Positions 20 to 11,137 of a DNA stretch of 11,137 nt are shown piece by piece. A program made the position numbers and the translations under genes. This stretch comes from a virus. Lineage: Duplodnaviria; Heunggongvirae; Uroviricota; Caudoviricetes. The notes under the pieces are model-generated. The model saw only the letters and a list, made by a program, of their open reading frames with translations. It was not told the DNA's origin and made no database searches. Location of the stretch: the IMG/VR virus record IMGVR_UViG_2541047596_000006; one strand, written 5' to 3'. How positions within the stretch are numbered: position 1 is the first letter of the stretch; each line of letters opens with the position of its first letter.

Positions 20-1315
20 TTAATTTTTCATTGCTTCGTTATGGGGCATGGTTGGGGCAAACTCGCTTAACTGTGTATTTAACAAAGCTACCTGTGCATT
101 ATTGTTTTCAGACATCCATTTTCCGTATACCTGAAATACCATTTGCGCATCTGCATGGCCCATCTGGTTTGCTATAAATGCCGGGTTAGCACCAGCTGTC
201 AGCGACCAGCAGGCATAAGTATGTCTCGACTGATATGATTTTCGATGGCGGAGTCCGGCACGTTTTATCGCTGCGTCCCACATCTGCCTTATTGAGTCAA
301 CGGTAAAATGGTCACCATAATTTTTTACTCTCGCTGACACTTCAGGTTGAAAAACAAAGGTGCATTTTTGTTTTTCTGTTCTGCCATACTCTCTGAGGTG
401 AACATCAATGATATGCTCTTTGCTCAGTCTCGTTAATGTCATCTGACTCCGGAGAGCGTCGATTGCTGGCTTAATAAGATGAATGACCCGATTGGTTCCC
501 GCCTGTGTTTTTGGTACCGTGAAACGGTCTTTTGCTAAATTTCTCCTGATCATCATTGTTCCATTTTTCAGATCTATGTCCTCCCATCCAAGTGCACACA
601 GCTCACCAGGGCGAACGCCAGTATAAACAGAAACACACCATAAATTTTTTGCTTGCTGATTTCTGCACGCATCGATAAGACGGATAAATTCTTCCCGCGA
701 AAGAGGATCCGGAATGGTTCTTGATTCCTTTAATGGCGAGATCCCCTTAAACGGATTATCTGCCAGGTAACCGTTATCAACACCAAACTGGAACACGGCG
801 TTAAGATTTGTCATGTAATTAATTACAGTTACAGCCGATCTCCCTGGTTGTGTAACAATATAGTTACTTTTGGGGATCTGGTATCCAGTCAGTAACTCTT
901 TACGAACCTCCAGTAATTTTTCTTTATTAATCGATGAGGCAAGATTTTTTTCACCGATTATGCTCAGGATATTTTTGATGACGGCACGGTATGTGTTGAG
1001 TGATGTTTTGGCGACTTCAGTTTCTTTCAGTGCCAGAAATTTTTCAGCCAGTTCTTTTATGGTTAAATCTTGTCGGGCCTCACCAAATTTTTCCAGATTG
1101 CGTGAGGAGGGAAACTGTTTTGCATAGTCGAAAACACCAGTTTTTATTGCGTAACAAACAGAGGAGCGTAGTTCACCTGCAACGCGCCTGTTTTTTGCTG
1201 TGTCAGGAACCCCCAGATTTTCCCTGACTCTTACGTCTTTATAAACAAACCAGATACGTAATTTCCCTCCATGGTTTTCCACGCCTGTCGGATATTTCAT
1301 TTCAACTTCTCTCAT
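20..1315 (-). CDS. Phage-type tyrosine integrase (site-specific recombinase), 431 aa
   Basis: Longest ORF in the window. The C-terminal half carries the tyrosine-recombinase catalytic layout (conserved R, then H-x-x-R, then a Y near the C-terminus: ...HTYACW...). Position at the element edge with an xis-like ORF immediately upstream on the same strand is typical of lambdoid int. An alternative start at Met6 (MKYPTG...) is possible. Confidence 0.88.
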   Translation of the reverse strand: MREVEMKYPTGVENHGGKLRIWFVYKDVRVRENLGVPDTAKNRRVAGELRSSVCYAIKTGVFDYAKQFPSSRNLEKFGEARQDLTIKELAEKFLALKETEVAKTSLNTYRAVIKNILSIIGEKNLASSINKEKLLEVRKELLTGYQIPKSNYIVTQPGRSAVTVINYMTNLNAVFQFGVDNGYLADNPFKGISPLKESRTIPDPLSREEFIRLIDACRNQQAKNLWCVSVYTGVRPGELCALGWEDIDLKNGTMMIRRNLAKDRFTVPKTQAGTNRVIHLIKPAIDALRSQMTLTRLSKEHIIDVHLREYGRTEKQKCTFVFQPEVSARVKNYGDHFTVDSIRQMWDAAIKRAGLRHRKSYQSRHTYACWSLTAGANPAFIANQMGHADAQMVFQVYGKWMSENNNAQVALLNTQLSEFAPTMPHNEAMKN

Positions 1316-3090: not shown

Positions 3091-3345
3091 GATTAATGGA
3101 TTAACTATGTCGGTTAAACGACCAGCCAACTGAAAAAGCGGAAACCTGATTACAGGTTGCCAGATAAGGCAATGAGCTACCTGGCGCGGAACGGACTGAT
3201 AAGTATGGGGAATGTTTTACGATGAACCTTTAGACTAAAGAGTTTGTAACGCTATGTAAGTGATTTTTTCTGGTTTAGATATTTATATGTCCGGCCAAAT
3301 TGAGGTGTGTTTAAATGTAATTGCACATTGATTGTAGGAGGAATA

Positions 3346-3525
3346 ATGAAAAACGCATTGCAGTTTTTGTTTGTTGCGTTCTGGTTGTTCGCATCATGTA
3401 TGCCCATCATCTTCACAGCAAGGTATATGGAAAAAGTTGATGTTTTGATATTAATATTTGGATATATAAATGCCCTTTTTTTAGGGGTGTTCATGGCGGT
3501 CATGTGCATTGAATACTGGCGGTAA
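3346..3525 (+). CDS. Small predicted membrane protein (59 aa, two hydrophobic helices)
   Basis: ATG at 3346 preceded by a near-consensus Shine-Dalgarno (GTAGGAGGAATA-ATG). The product MKNALQFLFVAFWLFASCMPIIFTARYMEKVDVLILIFGYINALFLGVFMAVMCIEYWR has two hydrophobic segments separated by a short charged loop. The ORF track's 72-aa version starts at an upstream ATG (3307) without a ribosome-binding site. Confidence 0.5.
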   Translation: MKNALQFLFVAFWLFASCMPIIFTARYMEKVDVLILIFGYINALFLGVFMAVMCIEYWR

Positions 3526-3831
3526 ATACAGCGAACTCCATTGGTTTAGTTGGATATTTACTGTGCTGGACAAAAACGGTTTGCGGGGAAATCTTAGTTA
3601 AGTAGAATGACTGCGGGTGCTTGAGGCTATCTGCCTCGGGCATGGACACCAACGGCAGATAGAGAAAAGCCCCAGTTAACATTACGCGTCCTGCAAGACG
3701 CTTAACATTAATCTGAGGCCAATTTCATGCTAGACACATGTAGGTTAGCCTCTTACGTGCCGAAAGGCACGGAGAAGCAGGCTATTGTTAACACCAAGCT
3801 GTAATGTCCCCTTTGAACCATTCTAAAATGT

Positions 3832-3858
3832 CCCCAGACAATTCTCTGGGGGATTTTT
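3832..3858 (+). promoter_or_regulatory. Terminator-like hairpin (CCCCAGA-caattc-TCTGGGG followed by GATTTTT) directly upstream of the transposase ATG; its 3' arm contains the likely ribosome-binding site
   Basis: Seen in sequence: a 7-bp stem (5 GC pairs) and a T5 run ending 2 nt before the ATG at 3860. The GGGGG that would serve as Shine-Dalgarno is inside the stem. Insertion sequences commonly use such a structure to block read-through transcription or translation of the transposase. Confidence 0.4.
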
Positions 3859-3859
3859 C

Positions 3860-5173
3860 ATGATCAAAGAGACTGTTACGATGAGTCATAAGGAACTCCA
3901 CCGACTTCAGATTATTCAGGAACAAGCTGCGGCACGCATTGGCATTTCTATTCGGCAGGTTAAACGTCTGGTGCAACGGTATAGAAATGAAGGGCCTTCT
4001 GGTCTGGTTTCCCACCGACGTGGAAAGCGTCCTAATAATTCCTTTTCTACTGAATTCAGAGCAACAGTAATTTCACTCCTCAAAGGCCGTTACGCTGATT
4101 TTGGACCTACGTTTGCGTGCGAAAAATTGCGCGAGATACACGGTTTATCTTTATCCGTTGAAACTCTCAGAAAGTGGATGATAGAAGAGGGGTTATGGCG
4201 TGAACGCCGTCGTAAAATTGCCCGTATATATCAACGCCGCATGCGACGACCATCTTACGGTGAACTGATCCAGATTGATGGCTCACCTCATGACTGGTTT
4301 GAAAATCGAGGCCCCAGATGTACACTGATCGTTTTCATTGATGATGCCACCAGTGCGTTGATGGCGTTGCGTTTTGTGCCTGCTGAAACAACCCGGGCTT
4401 ACATGGAAACCCTCCGGGGTTACCTTAATGATCATGGCGTACCGCTCGCTCTCTACTCTGATAGACACAGTATATTCAGGGTAAATAACCCAGAGCGGGA
4501 AGGTGAGCTGACCCAGTTCACTCGTGCGATAAAGACACTGGGCATCGAGCCAATCCATGCCAACAGCCCGCAGGCAAAAGGGCGGGTAGAGCGCGCCAAT
4601 CAGACACTACAGGACAGGCTGGTCAAAGAAATGCGGCTTCAGAATATCAGTGATATTGAAACAGCAAATGCATGGTTGCCGACCTTTATTGAAGCCTATA
4701 ACAACCGGTTCGCTACGTCGCCTCGTACTACTGATAATGCTCATCTTGATGTGCACCATTCTGAAGAGGAACTGGGTTATATCTTCAGCCTACAGGCGAA
4801 GCGCGTTCTGTCTAAAAATCTCACTTTCCAGTACAAAAGCAGTGCGTTTCAGGTACGCAGTGAGGGCCGGGGATATCGACTTAGGCATTCGGTTGTTACT
4901 GTATGCGAGAACTTTGACGGTGAAATTAACGTTCTGTATGACGGGAAAGCGCTGGGCTGGGAAAAGTATGTTGATGGCCCGGAGCCTATACCACTGGATG
5001 ATGAAAAGAGTGTCCATGAACGAGTGGATAATGCCCGTATTGATTTACGCTCAAAATACTATGTTAAACCTAAAGCTGACCATCCCTGGCTTACGCGCCG
5101 AACGCAAAGTCATCAGCAAGTTAAGCCCCCGAAGTTACCTAAAAAGAAGCCTGATCCCGATAAAAAAGATTGA
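3860..5173 (+). CDS. DDE transposase of the rve/integrase-core superfamily with N-terminal helix-turn-helix; most consistent with the ISNCY (IS1202 group) or IS481 family
   Basis: 437 aa. N-terminal helix-turn-helix (...RIGISIRQVKRLVQRYRNEG...). Catalytic core with D (LIQIDGSPH), D (LYSDRHSIF) and E (KGRVERANQTLQ) at the spacing typical of retroviral-integrase-like transposases. Basic C-terminal tail. Met8 (MSHKELHRL) is an alternative start. Confidence 0.85.
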   Translation: MIKETVTMSHKELHRLQIIQEQAAARIGISIRQVKRLVQRYRNEGPSGLVSHRRGKRPNNSFSTEFRATVISLLKGRYADFGPTFACEKLREIHGLSLSVETLRKWMIEEGLWRERRRKIARIYQRRMRRPSYGELIQIDGSPHDWFENRGPRCTLIVFIDDATSALMALRFVPAETTRAYMETLRGYLNDHGVPLALYSDRHSIFRVNNPEREGELTQFTRAIKTLGIEPIHANSPQAKGRVERANQTLQDRLVKEMRLQNISDIETANAWLPTFIEAYNNRFATSPRTTDNAHLDVHHSEEELGYIFSLQAKRVLSKNLTFQYKSSAFQVRSEGRGYRLRHSVVTVCENFDGEINVLYDGKALGWEKYVDGPEPIPLDDEKSVHERVDNARIDLRSKYYVKPKADHPWLTRRTQSHQQVKPPKLPKKKPDPDKKD

Positions 5174-5564
5174 AACCAAGATCGATTCGGTTGAGTGCAT
5201 ATCCATTCATAGGGTAGATTCTTAAGTCGCGTTTCTGGTGTTCATTTTCGGGTGGTTTGTTACTTGTTTTACCGGGGATATGCCAGAAACGCGCTGAGTC
5301 AGTCTGGGCGGTGCGCGTAATGAGGCGTTATGGTAAATAGCCTATGCTAATGTCCGCTAAGAGCAAGAAGCGGAAGTTGGCAGTTTTGTGGACTGTCCCC
5401 ACAAAAGTGACTACAGAAATAGTTGCAATTCATAATTGATCATGGGTTGTCAGTTAAACTCGTGGCGATTTAAATAGACTAATTGGGAGTGCGTCCATTA
5501 CTTATATCTTGTAATGTTAACTATCAGAAATGATACAAAGATAATATGTCTTTAAAGAAAAGGC

Positions 5565-5595
5565 TGATGGCGAAAAGTGGCCCGATGAGGGCCAC
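5565..5595 (-). terminator. Rho-independent terminator downstream of flxA
   Basis: Plus-strand GTGGCCC-gatga-GGGCCAC (5577-5595) is a 7-bp GC-rich stem. On the minus strand it is followed by a T-rich tract. It lies about 15 nt past the flxA stop. Confidence 0.5.
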
Positions 5596-5609
5596 AATAC
5601 GGCTGTCAC

Positions 5610-5942
5610 TTAGACGTAAATATCAATGGTGCCAGCGGTATTTGTATCGTCTTTTTTCTCTTCTTTTTTATCAGGCTGAACTGTCGCGTCTTCATTCTTT
5701 TTCTCTGCCTGCTGCCTTAACAACTGCTCCAGTTGAGCCCAGAGGCTTTCAATTTGCTTCTGTACCAATGCAGCCATTTCTTTTTTCTGCTGTGTCGTCA
5801 TCCCCTCTTCCGATGAGATTTTCCCAAGCTTTTCAGTCAGCACCTGAATTTGTCTTGTGATTTTGGCTATTTCTGATGTTCCTTCCGGGGCGGAGTTGTT
5901 TGAAATAACGGTTGAGGTATTTCCCTGAATTGTGACAGACAT
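5610..5942 (-). CDS. flxA: FlxA (sigma-28-dependent flagellar-regulon protein encoded in the Qin prophage)
   Basis: The 110-aa product MSVTIQGNTSTVISNNSAPEGTSEIAKITRQIQVLTEKLGK...TIDIYV matches my recollection of E. coli FlxA in length and sequence. Shine-Dalgarno AAAAGGAGA sits 7 nt upstream. A sigma-28-type promoter lies just upstream. Confidence 0.85.
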   Translation of the reverse strand: MSVTIQGNTSTVISNNSAPEGTSEIAKITRQIQVLTEKLGKISSEEGMTTQQKKEMAALVQKQIESLWAQLEQLLRQQAEKKNEDATVQPDKKEEKKDDTNTAGTIDIYV

Positions 5943-5965
5943 AGATTTCTCCTTTTAAAAAAGCA

Positions 5966-5992
5966 CTATCGGCATGCACAAAAAAATCTTTA
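5966..5992 (-). promoter_or_regulatory. Sigma-28 (FliA) class promoter for flxA
   Basis: On the minus strand TAAAGATT-N11-GCCGATAG, against the FliA consensus TAAAGTTT-N11-GCCGATAA (14 of 16 positions, exact 11-nt spacer). The -10 element lies about 25 nt upstream of the flxA ATG. Confidence 0.6.
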
Positions 5993-6144
5993 ATCGTATT
6001 TCTTGTGTCATTAATTGTTTGATGTTCAGATTGTTTTCCTCGCGGGCTGGCGCGCCTCAGAAAGTAAAGCTTGTTGACAGGGGTAAACGTTCGGCAATAA
6101 TTTTCTGCCGCATGCGGGTGTTGCATAAAACGTGTTACGTTCCT

Positions 6145-6450
6145 TTATCGACAGGTCAGGTCACCGCTCACCCGCCGACGAGAAAGCAACACTGACATGC
6201 TAAAGCAAAAAATAGATGAATAAGTTGAGTTGTGCATATGTAGCCTGACCGTCACAAAGTATATGGTGTCTGTACCAGTAAGATGATGGCCGGACTCTTT
6301 AAAAACGAGCAGACCTGCACAATACAGGATGGACTTAGCAATGGCTGCTCCTGGCACAAAGCGGACAGTGATCACCGTTCTTACGACTACTTTCTGACTT
6401 CCTTCGTGACTTGCCCTAAGCATGTTGTAGTGCGATACTTGTAATGACAT
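6145..6450 (-). CDS. Hypothetical ORF between flxA and relB (ydfV-like position and length); coding status doubtful
   Basis: 101-aa ORF in the position where E. coli K-12 annotates the 101-aa ydfV between relB and flxA. The composition is atypical and there is no recognisable domain. Confidence 0.25.
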   Translation of the reverse strand: MSLQVSHYNMLRASHEGSQKVVVRTVITVRFVPGAAIAKSILYCAGLLVFKESGHHLTGTDTIYFVTVRLHMHNSTYSSIFCFSMSVLLSRRRVSGDLTCR

Positions 6451-6463
6451 TTGTAATTACAAG
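6411..6463 (+). promoter_or_regulatory. relBE promoter with overlapping operator palindrome
   Basis: TTGCCC-17nt-GATACT is a sigma-70-like -35/-10 pair. The inverted repeat CTTGTAAT-gacatttgta-ATTACAAG (6438-6463) contains two TTGTAAT hexads and overlaps the -10 element, consistent with RelB/RelE autorepression. Confidence 0.6.
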
Positions 6464-6474
6464 AGGTGTAAGAC

Positions 6475-6714
6475 ATGGGTAGCATTAACCTGCGTATTGA
6501 CGATGAACTTAAAGCGCGTTCTTACGCCGCGCTTGAAAAAATGGGTGTAACTCCTTCTGAAGCGCTTCGTCTCATGCTCGAGTATATCGCTGACAATGAA
6601 CGCTTGCCGTTCAAACAGACACTCCTGAGTGATGAAGATGCTGAACTTGTGGAGATAGTGAAAGAACGGCTTCGTAATCCTAAGCCAGTACGTGTGACGC
6701 TGGATGAACTCTGA
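6475..6714 (+). CDS. relB: RelB antitoxin (type II toxin-antitoxin)
   Basis: The 79-aa product MGSINLRIDDELKARSYAALEKMGVTPSEALR... is near-identical to my recollection of E. coli RelB. Its stop overlaps the relE start (TGATG). Confidence 0.95.
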   Translation: MGSINLRIDDELKARSYAALEKMGVTPSEALRLMLEYIADNERLPFKQTLLSDEDAELVEIVKERLRNPKPVRVTLDEL

Positions 6715-7001
6715 TGGCGTATTTTCTGGATTTTGACGAGCGGGCACTAAAGGAATGGCGAAAGCTGGGCTCGACGGTACGTGAACAGTTGAAAAAGAAG
6801 CTGGTTGAAGTACTTGAGTCACCCCGGATTGAAGCAAACAAGCTCCGTGGTATGCCTGATTGTTACAAGATTAAGCTCCGGTCTTCAGGCTATCGCCTTG
6901 TATACCAGGTTATAGACGAGAAAGTTGTCGTTTTCGTGATTTCTGTTGGGAAAAGAGAACGCTCGGAAGTATATAGCGAGGCGGTCAAACGCATTCTCTG
7001 A
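6714..7001 (+). CDS. relE: RelE toxin (ribosome-dependent mRNA interferase)
   Basis: The 95-aa product MAYFLDFDERALKEWRKLGSTVREQLKKKL...VISVGKRERSEVY matches E. coli RelE and is translationally coupled to relB. Confidence 0.95.
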   Translation: MAYFLDFDERALKEWRKLGSTVREQLKKKLVEVLESPRIEANKLRGMPDCYKIKLRSSGYRLVYQVIDEKVVVFVISVGKRERSEVYSEAVKRIL

Positions 7002-7072
7002 ACCAAAGCATGACATCTCTGTTTCGCACCGAAGGTGACACTTCTGCTTTGCGTTGACAGGAGAAGCAGGCT

Positions 7073-7228
7073 ATGAAGCAGCAAAAGGCGATGTTAATCG
7101 CCCTGATCGTCATCTGTTTAACCGTCATAGTGACGGCACTGGTAACGAGGAAAGACCTCTGCGAGGTACGAATCCGAACCGGCCAGACGGAGGTCGCTGT
7201 CTTCACAGCTTACGAACCTGAGGAGTAA
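7073..7228 (+). CDS. hokD: Hok-family type I toxin (HokD/RelF), 51 aa
   Basis: Not in the supplied ORF track (under 60 aa). My translation is MKQQKAMLIALIVICLTVIVTALVTRKDLCEVRIRTGQTEVAVFTAYEPEE: an N-terminal transmembrane helix and the conserved Hok C-terminal half. It is the third gene after relBE, as in Qin. Confidence 0.85.
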   Translation: MKQQKAMLIALIVICLTVIVTALVTRKDLCEVRIRTGQTEVAVFTAYEPEE

Positions 7229-8306: not shown

Positions 8307-8606
8307 AAAAATTCCTTAATACTGATAACTTGGCGCACTATACACACGTTCCTGAAGAAAGCTATAGTTTTTTGATGGGGTTGAAGATGGCTGGATGTCT
8401 AAAATAAACATTGCTTCATATGTTCAACTATGCGTTAATGATTGCGTCGGTTTGAAGAACAGACGATATACGAAGTAGTTTACTAAAGCAGTTCTCATTT
8501 CAGGTGTTATTCACTTATTCCTTCTTTGAGTCTCTCCAATTAAGTACGAAGTCGTTTCTGTTATGCAAACCATTTATGCCGAAAGGCTCAAGTTAAGGAA
8601 TGTAGA

Positions 8607-8822
8607 ATGTCAAATAAAATGACTGGTTTAGTAAAATGGTTTAACGCTGATAAAGGTTTCGGCTTTATTTCTCCTGTTGATGGTAGTAAAGATGTGTTTG
8701 TGCATTTTTCTGCGATTCAGAATGATAATTATCGAACCTTATTTGAAGGTCAAAAGGTTACCTTCTCTATAGAGAGTGGTGCTAAAGGTCCTGCAGCAGC
8801 AAATGTCATCATTACTGATTAA
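8607..8822 (+). CDS. cspB: Cold-shock protein CspB, 71 aa
   Basis: [67 protein letters not shown]... has the canonical RNP1 (KGFGFI) and RNP2 (VFVHF) motifs. A long upstream untranslated region (about 300 nt to cspF) is typical of cold-shock genes. Confidence 0.9.
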
Positions 8823-8933
8823 AATTCATCGCTCGTCTGTATACGATAACGAAGAAGGCTGATGCCTGAGTAGAGATACGGACAGAGTAGTGAATATTGG
8901 ATCTCTTTAATAAAAAGTAAGGAGGTCCAATAC

Positions 8934-9356: not shown

Positions 9357-9575
9357 AGGCTTTTCCTGTATAAATGGCCGTATACAGTACACTAAATATG
9401 AAAACATTTCTCGTATTATTATTTTATATATGACTTTCTTTCAAAATAATTACCCACATTTTTAATGTGTATGTTTTTTTAGCGCCGTTGAGAACAACGT
9501 GTGCTGTCAAAACTACCCCGTAGACTCCGATCTTTTCAAACATATTGCACCATCCGTGTACATCGGGGTGAGGAT

Positions 9576-9791
9576 ATGAAATCAATGGATAAGTTAACAA
9601 CAGGTGTTGCCTATGGCACATCGGCGGGTAATGCTGGTTTCTGGGCATTGCAGTTACTCGATAAAGTAACTCCGTCACAGTGGGCTGCAATCGGTGTGCT
9701 GGGTAGCCTGGTTTTTGGCCTGCTGACGTATCTGACAAATCTTTATTTCAAGATTAAAGAAGACAGGCGTAAGGCTGCGAGAGGAGAGTAA
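9576..9791 (+). CDS. essQ: Phage holin, 71 aa, lambdoid phage 21 S-type (pinholin-like) with a dual-start motif
   Basis: [71 protein letters not shown] has two transmembrane segments and a charged C-terminus. The Met1-Lys-Ser-Met4 start resembles the S21 holin/antiholin dual start. The ORF track starts 25 codons upstream (9501) without supporting signals. Confidence 0.85.
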
Positions 9792-9795
9792 TCCA

Positions 9796-10103
9796 ATGAC
9801 TCAAGACTATGAACTGGTTGTGAAAGGAGTCCGTAATTTTGAGAATAAAGTTACGGTAACTGTAGCCTTACAGGACAAAGAACGCTTTGACGGTGAAATT
9901 TTTGACCTGGATGTCGCCATGGACCGTGTTGAAGGAGCTGCGCTGGAGTTTTATGAGGCAGCAGCCAGAAGGAGCGCCCGGCAAGTCTTCCTGGAAGTAG
10001 CAGAAAAATTGTCAGAAAAAGTTGAGTCTTATCTGCAGCATCAGTACTCCTTTAAGATTGAAAATCCTGCCAATAAGCACGAGCGTCCTCATCATAAATA
10101 TCT

Positions 10104-10107
<4 letters not shown>
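9796..10107 (+). CDS. ydfR: Conserved phage protein of unknown function located between holin and endolysin (YdfR-like), 103 aa
   Basis: Ribosome-binding site GAGGAGAG. It sits between the holin and the endolysin as in Qin (essQ-ydfR-rrrQ), and its stop overlaps the endolysin start (ATGA). Confidence 0.75.

Positions 10108-11137
<1,030 letters not shown>

Follow-up and report, generated by a model that had tools for sequence, protein, structure and literature searches.

A selectively maintained gene for a predicted two-helix membrane protein upstream of hok/sok in a Qin-type prophage

Introduction

Small hydrophobic open reading frames (ORFs) in prophages raise two questions, whether they are genes at all and, if so, to which element they belong. 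Both arise at a 59-codon ORF in an Escherichia coli Qin-type lambdoid prophage, deposited as IMG/VR record IMGVR_UViG_2541047596_000006 (Caudoviricetes), of which we analysed a stretch of 11,137 nucleotides, referred to here as the window. An earlier note, made from the sequence alone, had read the ORF, in an otherwise decayed region and upstream of a structured region, as a gene that has been maintained and that encodes a small membrane protein of two helices. Toxins, superinfection exclusion and abortive infection were the roles it named as frequent among such prophage proteins. It had also suggested that an inverted repeat just upstream could be an operator, and had left undecided whether the gene is cargo of an adjacent IS-like element or an independent moron. 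Here we ask what the ORF encodes, whether it has been kept by selection, how it relates to its neighbours and what its product might do.

Results

The ORF runs on the plus strand from the ATG at 3346 to the TAA at 3523–3525, and its product is MKNALQFLFVAFWLFASCMPIIFTARYMEKVDVLILIFGYINALFLGVFMAVMCIEYWR (59 aa; MKNALQ...IEYWR). Conservation in three lineages (A, to which the window belongs, T and B; see below) and a helical hairpin model accord with the ORF list in placing the coding sequence, stop included, at 3346–3525. A Shine–Dalgarno sequence read directly from the DNA, AGGAGG (3336–3341, plus strand), ends 4 nt 5' of the ATG, and in lineage T a purine-rich GGGGGG is its counterpart at the identical position. 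The ORF list also offers an in-frame GTG start at 3307, giving 72 aa; it is the 59-aa form that the Shine–Dalgarno sequence precedes and that the most distant paralogue shares, a stop there closing the extension of the 72-aa form.

The product is strongly hydrophobic (GRAVY 1.27), with hydrophobic stretches at approximately residues 4–24 and 33–55. AlphaFold2, run on a 10-sequence alignment, placed helices at residues 2–24 and 30–57 with a mean pLDDT of 71, and the protein is accordingly predicted to be a two-helix hairpin. The two predicted transmembrane (TM) helices are linked by a short, mostly acidic loop. The N terminus is basic (K2; K/R at 2–3) and the loop is acidic in two of the three lineages (T and B), so that by the positive-inside rule both ends are likely cytoplasmic (N-in/C-in). 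Small or polar residues are conserved in both helices (S17, C18, P20 and T24; G39, N42 and G47), as is the C-terminal tail, IE-x-WR. Thus the earlier reading of a hydrophobic 59-aa ORF behind a strong ribosome-binding site is borne out, and that of a two-helix membrane protein is upheld by prediction.

The inverted repeat upstream of the ORF exists, one base from where it had first been placed (3314–3329 rather than 3313–3328), and has 5-bp arms (AATGT-AATTGC-ACATT). Its proposed role as an operator was rejected. Perfect 5-bp inverted repeats with loops of 3–8 nt occur about once per 100 nt in the window and the exact AATGT/ACATT pattern was present in 37 of 200 shuffles, which puts the repeat at chance level; the arms are not complementary in lineage T (AATAT...GCATT), and one of them is polymorphic within lineage A, at 3325. 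Folding of the leader RNA of the ORF revealed no structure in excess of that of shuffled versions (z = +0.22). A strict scan of the surroundings of the ORF detected neither promoter-like sites, on either strand, nor terminator-like sites on the plus strand; since it also missed the inferred hok promoter described below, a weak or non-consensus promoter may have escaped it. A minus-strand terminator-like hairpin with a T-run, probably coincidental, lies at 3143–3158 within the decayed upstream gene.

Homologues of the protein fall into the three lineages only. At a threshold of ≥95% DNA identity, lineage A is present in 1,570 of 5,426 complete E. coli genomes (~29%); its ORF is also found in three deposited phages, and the exact 59-aa protein is recorded on at least 1,000 contigs. 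Lineage T, from a prophage of E. coli TA280, has 78% amino-acid identity. Lineage B, found in B2-phylogroup strains, is 41% identical over all 59 residues without a gap (BLASTP E 1e-18) and is carried by 1,045 of the 5,426 complete E. coli genomes (~19%), ATCC 11775 and ST131 among them. This paralogue (positions 6001–6300 of locus L091, from E. coli CP042246.1) lies in the ttcA–uspF interval, the Rac attachment region, with a perfect TTGACA approximately 80 nt upstream. The island around it is degraded, holding an integrase fragment, fragments of a sit-type ABC permease and a hok remnant of 66 nt, 55 nt downstream from the ORF, that matches at 80% identity (E 1e-13). No feature lies under the match in the 25 RefSeq records listed.

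The homology searches proposed in the earlier note returned nothing beyond these lineages and fragments of them, whether by exhaustive phmmer against 1.84 billion representatives or by a profile search of 5.8 billion proteins, and metagenome, phage and plasmid searches likewise gave no further lineage. When 185,579 species were scanned, each represented by one genome, the family appeared in Shigella and E. coli only; all homologues are from Escherichia or Shigella except one 9.5-kb record labelled Klebsiella oxytoca.

Family libraries were equally silent. The 59-aa protein had no match in Pfam at E values up to 10, and scans of PHROGs, NCBIfam and PADLOC with three family members gave nothing above noise (PADLOC at E up to 1); no known toxin, holin, exclusion or defence profile in the four libraries matches the family. 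The holin family phrog_785 was touched weakly by one of ten family members (E 0.0075–0.015) and not by the protein of the window. A profile search of PDB sequences with the family found no match, and Foldseek comparison of the AlphaFold2 model with viral structures returned generic helical hairpins only, all at E ≥1.4. The family is therefore without a model in Pfam, PHROGs, NCBIfam or PADLOC, and is a new family of a familiar kind, the small prophage membrane protein.

Genome annotation barely registers the gene. GenBank labels the protein 'hypothetical protein', with a single 'membrane protein', and in the two RefSeq records inspected, which are identical to the window over 3146–3800, no feature covers the ORF. 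E. coli MG1655 is without the region that carries it, so that K-12 ribosome-profiling data are not applicable. For CFT073, a small-protein Ribo-seq preprint (10.64898/2026.09.28.754932) might extend to the B paralogue; its accessible part describes SMP7, which is unrelated to the 59-aa family. We also observed that a 4.83-Mb genome labelled DH5alpha (NZ_CP026085.1; locus L001) has in full the dicC-YdaT-O-like-...-ISNCY region, a segment missing from K-12 MG1655 between dicC and ydfW; this genome may not be a true K-12 derivative.

Comparison of the three lineages indicates that the ORF is selectively maintained. Start, stop and length of 59 codons are identical in all three, with zero indels, across 15% and 40% nucleotide divergence. 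Nei–Gojobori dN/dS values, from the three pairwise comparisons that three lineages provide, are 0.32 (A–T), 0.19 (A–B, for which dS is saturated) and 0.22 (T–B), and the synonymous excess is significant (Fisher p = 0.007 and 9e-5). Differences between A and T number 8, 4 and 15 at the first, second and third codon positions. In simulations of unselected substitution, in which indels were not counted, the ORF survived in 8.7% of cases at the A–T level of divergence and in 0.3% at the A–B level. Nucleotide identity between A and T is 85% in the ORF versus 68% and 78% in the immediate flanks, and in the B copy the ORF is retained while the flanks cannot be aligned with those of A. Finally, when IMG/VR loci were collected with a 26-nt motif from the start of the ORF, 79 of the 80 had the 59-aa frame intact. 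The conservation in related prophages on which the earlier claim of a maintained gene depended is thus present.

Variation within lineage A is of a different character. Its members are 93–100% identical and all five polymorphisms are non-synonymous (A16V, V31I, I37M, Y40H and L44I), so that purifying selection is not apparent over short periods; several alleles with a truncation or a frameshift are also known, all of them rare. The low diversity of the ORF among 29 haplotypes (2.8% versus 9–22% in the flanks) was rejected as evidence of constraint because the loci had been retrieved by similarity to the ORF, an ascertainment effect, and because the flanks are recombinant mosaics. At one of the IMG/VR loci L181–L260 the ORF breaks off after codon 25 and continues into ...VMTPTY, the residues with which the last, Rz-like ORF ends at the right edge of the window (11117–11137); the fusion is possibly a recombination or deletion junction.

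Two phage records, PV340562.1 and ON470612.1, annotate in place of the sense ORF an 85-aa ORF on the minus strand (3252–3509), called 'hornerin' in one instance and a hypothetical protein otherwise. The antisense frame is open in lineages A and T. In lineage B, however, several stops interrupt it, and only the sense frame is open. It shares its third codon positions with the sense frame, and an antisense frame in that register is expected to be open when the sense frame avoids TTA, CTA and TCA. For these reasons we regard the antisense ORF as spurious and its annotation as probably a mis-annotation.

The ORF lies in a decayed neighbourhood of the prophage. Besides an integrase gene (20–1315, minus strand) and a methyltransferase gene, the window holds decayed nin-region genes, flxA, ydfV, relBE, hokD and cspF/cspB, and ends in a lysis cassette (essQ-like, ydfR, rrrQ-like and Rz; 9501–11137) whose essQ-like holin gene occupies 9501–9791. 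The two genes upstream of the ORF are pseudogenes in the two RefSeq records inspected, as the description of an otherwise decayed region had it. A cspA-type thermoregulator 5'UTR (Rfam RF01766, 159 bits; 8446–8838), expected for Qin cold-shock genes, extends over the 5'UTR and coding sequence of cspB (8607–8822).

Within these surroundings the ORF forms part of a discrete cassette. Alignment with the sister locus L278, together with GC values, delimits a segment of approximately 333 nt (3227–3559, borders approximate) that comprises the ORF and a leader of ~120 nt. Its GC content is 35.6% versus 43–51% in the flanks. The cassette lies between the end of a conserved nin-region gene (...TTTTACGATGA) and the hok promoter region, and its place is taken by a 27-aa hydrophobic ORF in sister prophages whose hok locus is near-identical and whose upstream gene ends likewise (...NGLISxEDxLR, TTTTACGATGA). 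A discrete insertion of deviating base composition between conserved genes is one mark of a moron, another being a promoter and terminator of its own for expression from the repressed prophage; by the first of these the cassette is an independent moron-like insertion or replacement. The orientation of the ORF matches that of the rightward O/P–nin–Q operon in intact phages.

The structured region downstream of the ORF proved to be the hok mRNA 5'UTR with the sok antisense region (3615–3785, plus strand; Rfam RF01794, 104 bits, match 3615–3786). An inferred hok promoter (TTGCGG, 16 nt, TAGAAT; 3581–3608, plus strand), read from the sequence upstream of the Rfam model start at 3615, stands between the 59-aa ORF and the hok transcript. 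In intact copies (phage vB_EcoS-640R1 and strain TA280) the hok 5'UTR/sok region is contiguous with an ORF identical or near-identical to HokD. In the window 3,274 bp separate the two sides of this join (GGCTAT|G), such that the 5' half of the locus is orphaned 3.3 kb from the hokD coding sequence (7073–7228, plus strand), the latter identified from the ORF list and the comparison with intact phages.

The DNA that splits hokD is an IS1202/ISNCY-type transposon unit (3786–7059, plus strand) comprising an ISNCY-family transposase gene (3860–5173), flxA, ydfV, relB and relE. It is bounded by terminal inverted repeats matching at 22 of 30 positions, the sole such match in the window, and by exact 15-bp direct repeats (GGAGAAGCAGGCTAT; 3771–3785 and 7060–7074) that represent the target duplication. 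In the IS1202 family, both long target duplications and members carrying passengers have been documented (PMC10132070). These observations suggest that a transposon inserting into the hok start codon brought in the classical relBE of Qin as a passenger. The arrangement is hidden in MG1655 by deletion of the left part.

Although the unit starts only 260 nt downstream of the 59-aa ORF, the ORF is not its cargo. It ends before the unit, outside both the terminal repeats and the target duplication, and it occurs where the element does not: hok is uninterrupted at 46 of the 77 informative IMG/VR loci with the ORF (split by the transposon at the remaining 31), and the ORF is likewise present without the element in phage vB_EcoS-640R1 and strain TA280. 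Of the two origins considered in the earlier note, that of IS cargo is thus dismissed in favour of the independent moron. Overall, it is very probable that the 59 codons form a real gene, that the product is a two-helix membrane protein and that the gene is not IS cargo.

Lastly, the position next to hok recurs. In all three lineages the ORF lies directly upstream of hok/sok or, in B, of the hok remnant. More widely, an ORF of 20–110 aa that is preceded by a Shine–Dalgarno sequence, encodes a TM segment and ends no more than 200 nt before the 5' end of hok was found at 43 of 76 prophage hok loci, versus 1.2% of random positions on the same contigs, although these loci are from related prophages and the counts are neither independent nor corrected for relatedness. 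The small TM ORFs are of at least four kinds, a 27-aa ORF (for example MTWPEALTTVGIAMAVALVVYSICRWG), a 29/34-aa family (29-aa example MLVLKCALAIAAVMAIYCLAVVLMDRLSD), an 81-aa PHROG 3772 protein and the 59-aa family (the examples are from IMG/VR loci L277–L351, such as L278, L277, L290 and L348); 64 of the 76 hok loci are without the last of these. Hok genes are described as enriched in prophages in the accessible part of a recent preprint (10.1101/2025.08.07.668861), where a term search returned no mention of neighbouring genes or membrane proteins.

Discussion

Overall, the data are best explained by a genuine gene for a 59-aa inner-membrane protein, moron-like, transcribed early and serving an accessory membrane function, and we consider this explanation as a whole reasonably probable. 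The protein would probably be made from the rightward early transcript of the prophage by way of its strong ribosome-binding site. Early transcription is suggested by an orientation that is the same as that of the replication, nin and Q genes and by the lack of a recognizable promoter or terminator of the gene's own, and we put expression from the early operon at about an even chance. Once made, the protein would insert into the inner membrane and work through helix–helix contacts. Its target would probably be the membrane or a membrane protein, and its function a dispensable accessory one, such as phage exclusion or altered membrane energetics; this specific role, guessed from architecture and position, is put forward tentatively.

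The closest parallels to such a role are the superinfection-exclusion proteins Imm of phage T4 and gp15 of phage HK97, which are small inner-membrane moron products. The 59-aa gene resembles them in encoding a small membrane protein from a compositionally distinct cassette between conserved phage genes, and it is dispensable as morons are, since other ORFs replace it in sister phages. It differs from exclusion morons in that the strict scan detected no promoter or terminator of its own, and in that its product has no sequence or profile similarity to exclusion or defence proteins.

Two other readings concern whether the sense ORF is a gene in the first place. It could be non-functional, a frame not yet hit by mutation in the AT-rich, hydrophobic-codon-rich DNA of a prophage segment that spread recently. 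The near-identity within lineage A, its five non-synonymous polymorphisms and rare truncated alleles would all suit such a frame, as would the small target for disruption that 180 nt presents and the failure of the two inspected RefSeq records to call it. This reading is nonetheless very improbable, because it would have to account for a frame, start and stop conserved without indels at both levels of divergence, for dN/dS values of 0.19–0.32, for an ORF better conserved than its flanks between A and T and retained in B where the flanks are unalignable, and for survival that chance alone would give in 0.3% of simulations at the A–B level. Still harder to credit is the antisense 85-aa ORF as the true gene. 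Its annotation as a CDS in two phage records and its openness in lineages A and T speak for it, but the stops in lineage B fall in the antisense and not the sense frame, and the openness elsewhere is what shared third codon positions would lead one to expect.

The remaining readings accept the gene and dispute its function. The protein could be toxic in its own right, a membrane peptide akin to type I toxins, GhoT or pinholins that is silenced by an unseen antisense RNA or by repression. This is unlikely, albeit the protein has the look of one: it is extremely hydrophobic, has two helices and a strong Shine–Dalgarno sequence, falls within the size range of type I toxins (<60 aa) and sits in a prophage beside two toxin systems, hok and relBE, and one family member weakly matches a holin PHROG. 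Like the Hok/Gef toxins, it is a small hydrophobic prophage-borne membrane peptide, and it adjoins hok/sok or a hok remnant in every lineage. Unlike them, it has two helices rather than one, has no match to Pfam PF01848, and comes without a mok-like leader ORF, a fold-back mRNA or an antisense RNA. Indeed, no cognate antisense or adjacent small RNA emerged from the Rfam search over the ORF (3226–3560), the minus-strand promoter scan or the folding of the leader, although a novel RNA might be present, and neither Pfam, PADLOC nor NCBIfam yielded a toxin match. GhoT, a type V toxin of E. coli, has ~57–59 residues and two predicted helices and is very hydrophobic. The 59-aa protein matches it in size, predicted helices and hydrophobicity, but showed no sequence similarity in any library, and its gene has no adjacent antitoxin gene. 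With class II holins (about 60–70 aa) and pinholins such as S21 of phage 21 it shares a comparable size, two predicted TM helices and a likely N-in/C-in topology. Its gene, however, belongs to the nin region and is separated by ~6 kb from the downstream lysis cassette, where the prophage has an essQ-like holin gene of its own, and the phrog_785 match (best E 0.0075) is marginal and confined to a single family member. The conserved polar and small residues, moreover, would suggest specific packing over generic pore formation.

Functional coupling to Hok, with the protein acting as a membrane-level modulator or immunity factor, or as an alternative membrane toxin in a slot for small TM peptides, is distinctly unlikely. 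It draws on the adjacency to hok/sok or its remnant in all three lineages and on the excess of small TM ORFs of at least four kinds upstream of hok. We keep it as a low-probability rival because the hok loci come from related prophages, because the 59-aa family is absent from most of them (64 of 76) and because the ORF survives a broken hok, being intact whether hok is whole or split and in B2 strains that have the hok remnant only; the ORF, located as it is before the hok promoter, is also not part of the hok transcript. The wider proposal is more doubtful still. In it, a slot directly before the hok promoter recurs in prophage hok/sok loci and is taken up by unrelated genes for small TM peptides that act with Hok at the membrane; such peptides might, for example, tune or neutralize Hok while the phage itself develops, or serve as a second killing module. 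The accessory moron-like gene is the favoured reading.

Without a phenotype, the 59-aa protein is one more 'hypothetical small prophage membrane protein' of the ordinary sort. Its history in the databases illustrates how annotation systematically misses small membrane proteins, the ORF having been omitted from the two RefSeq records inspected and the wrong strand called in phage records. The constant position next to hok/sok offers in addition a cheap and concrete hypothesis on prophage-encoded membrane effectors.
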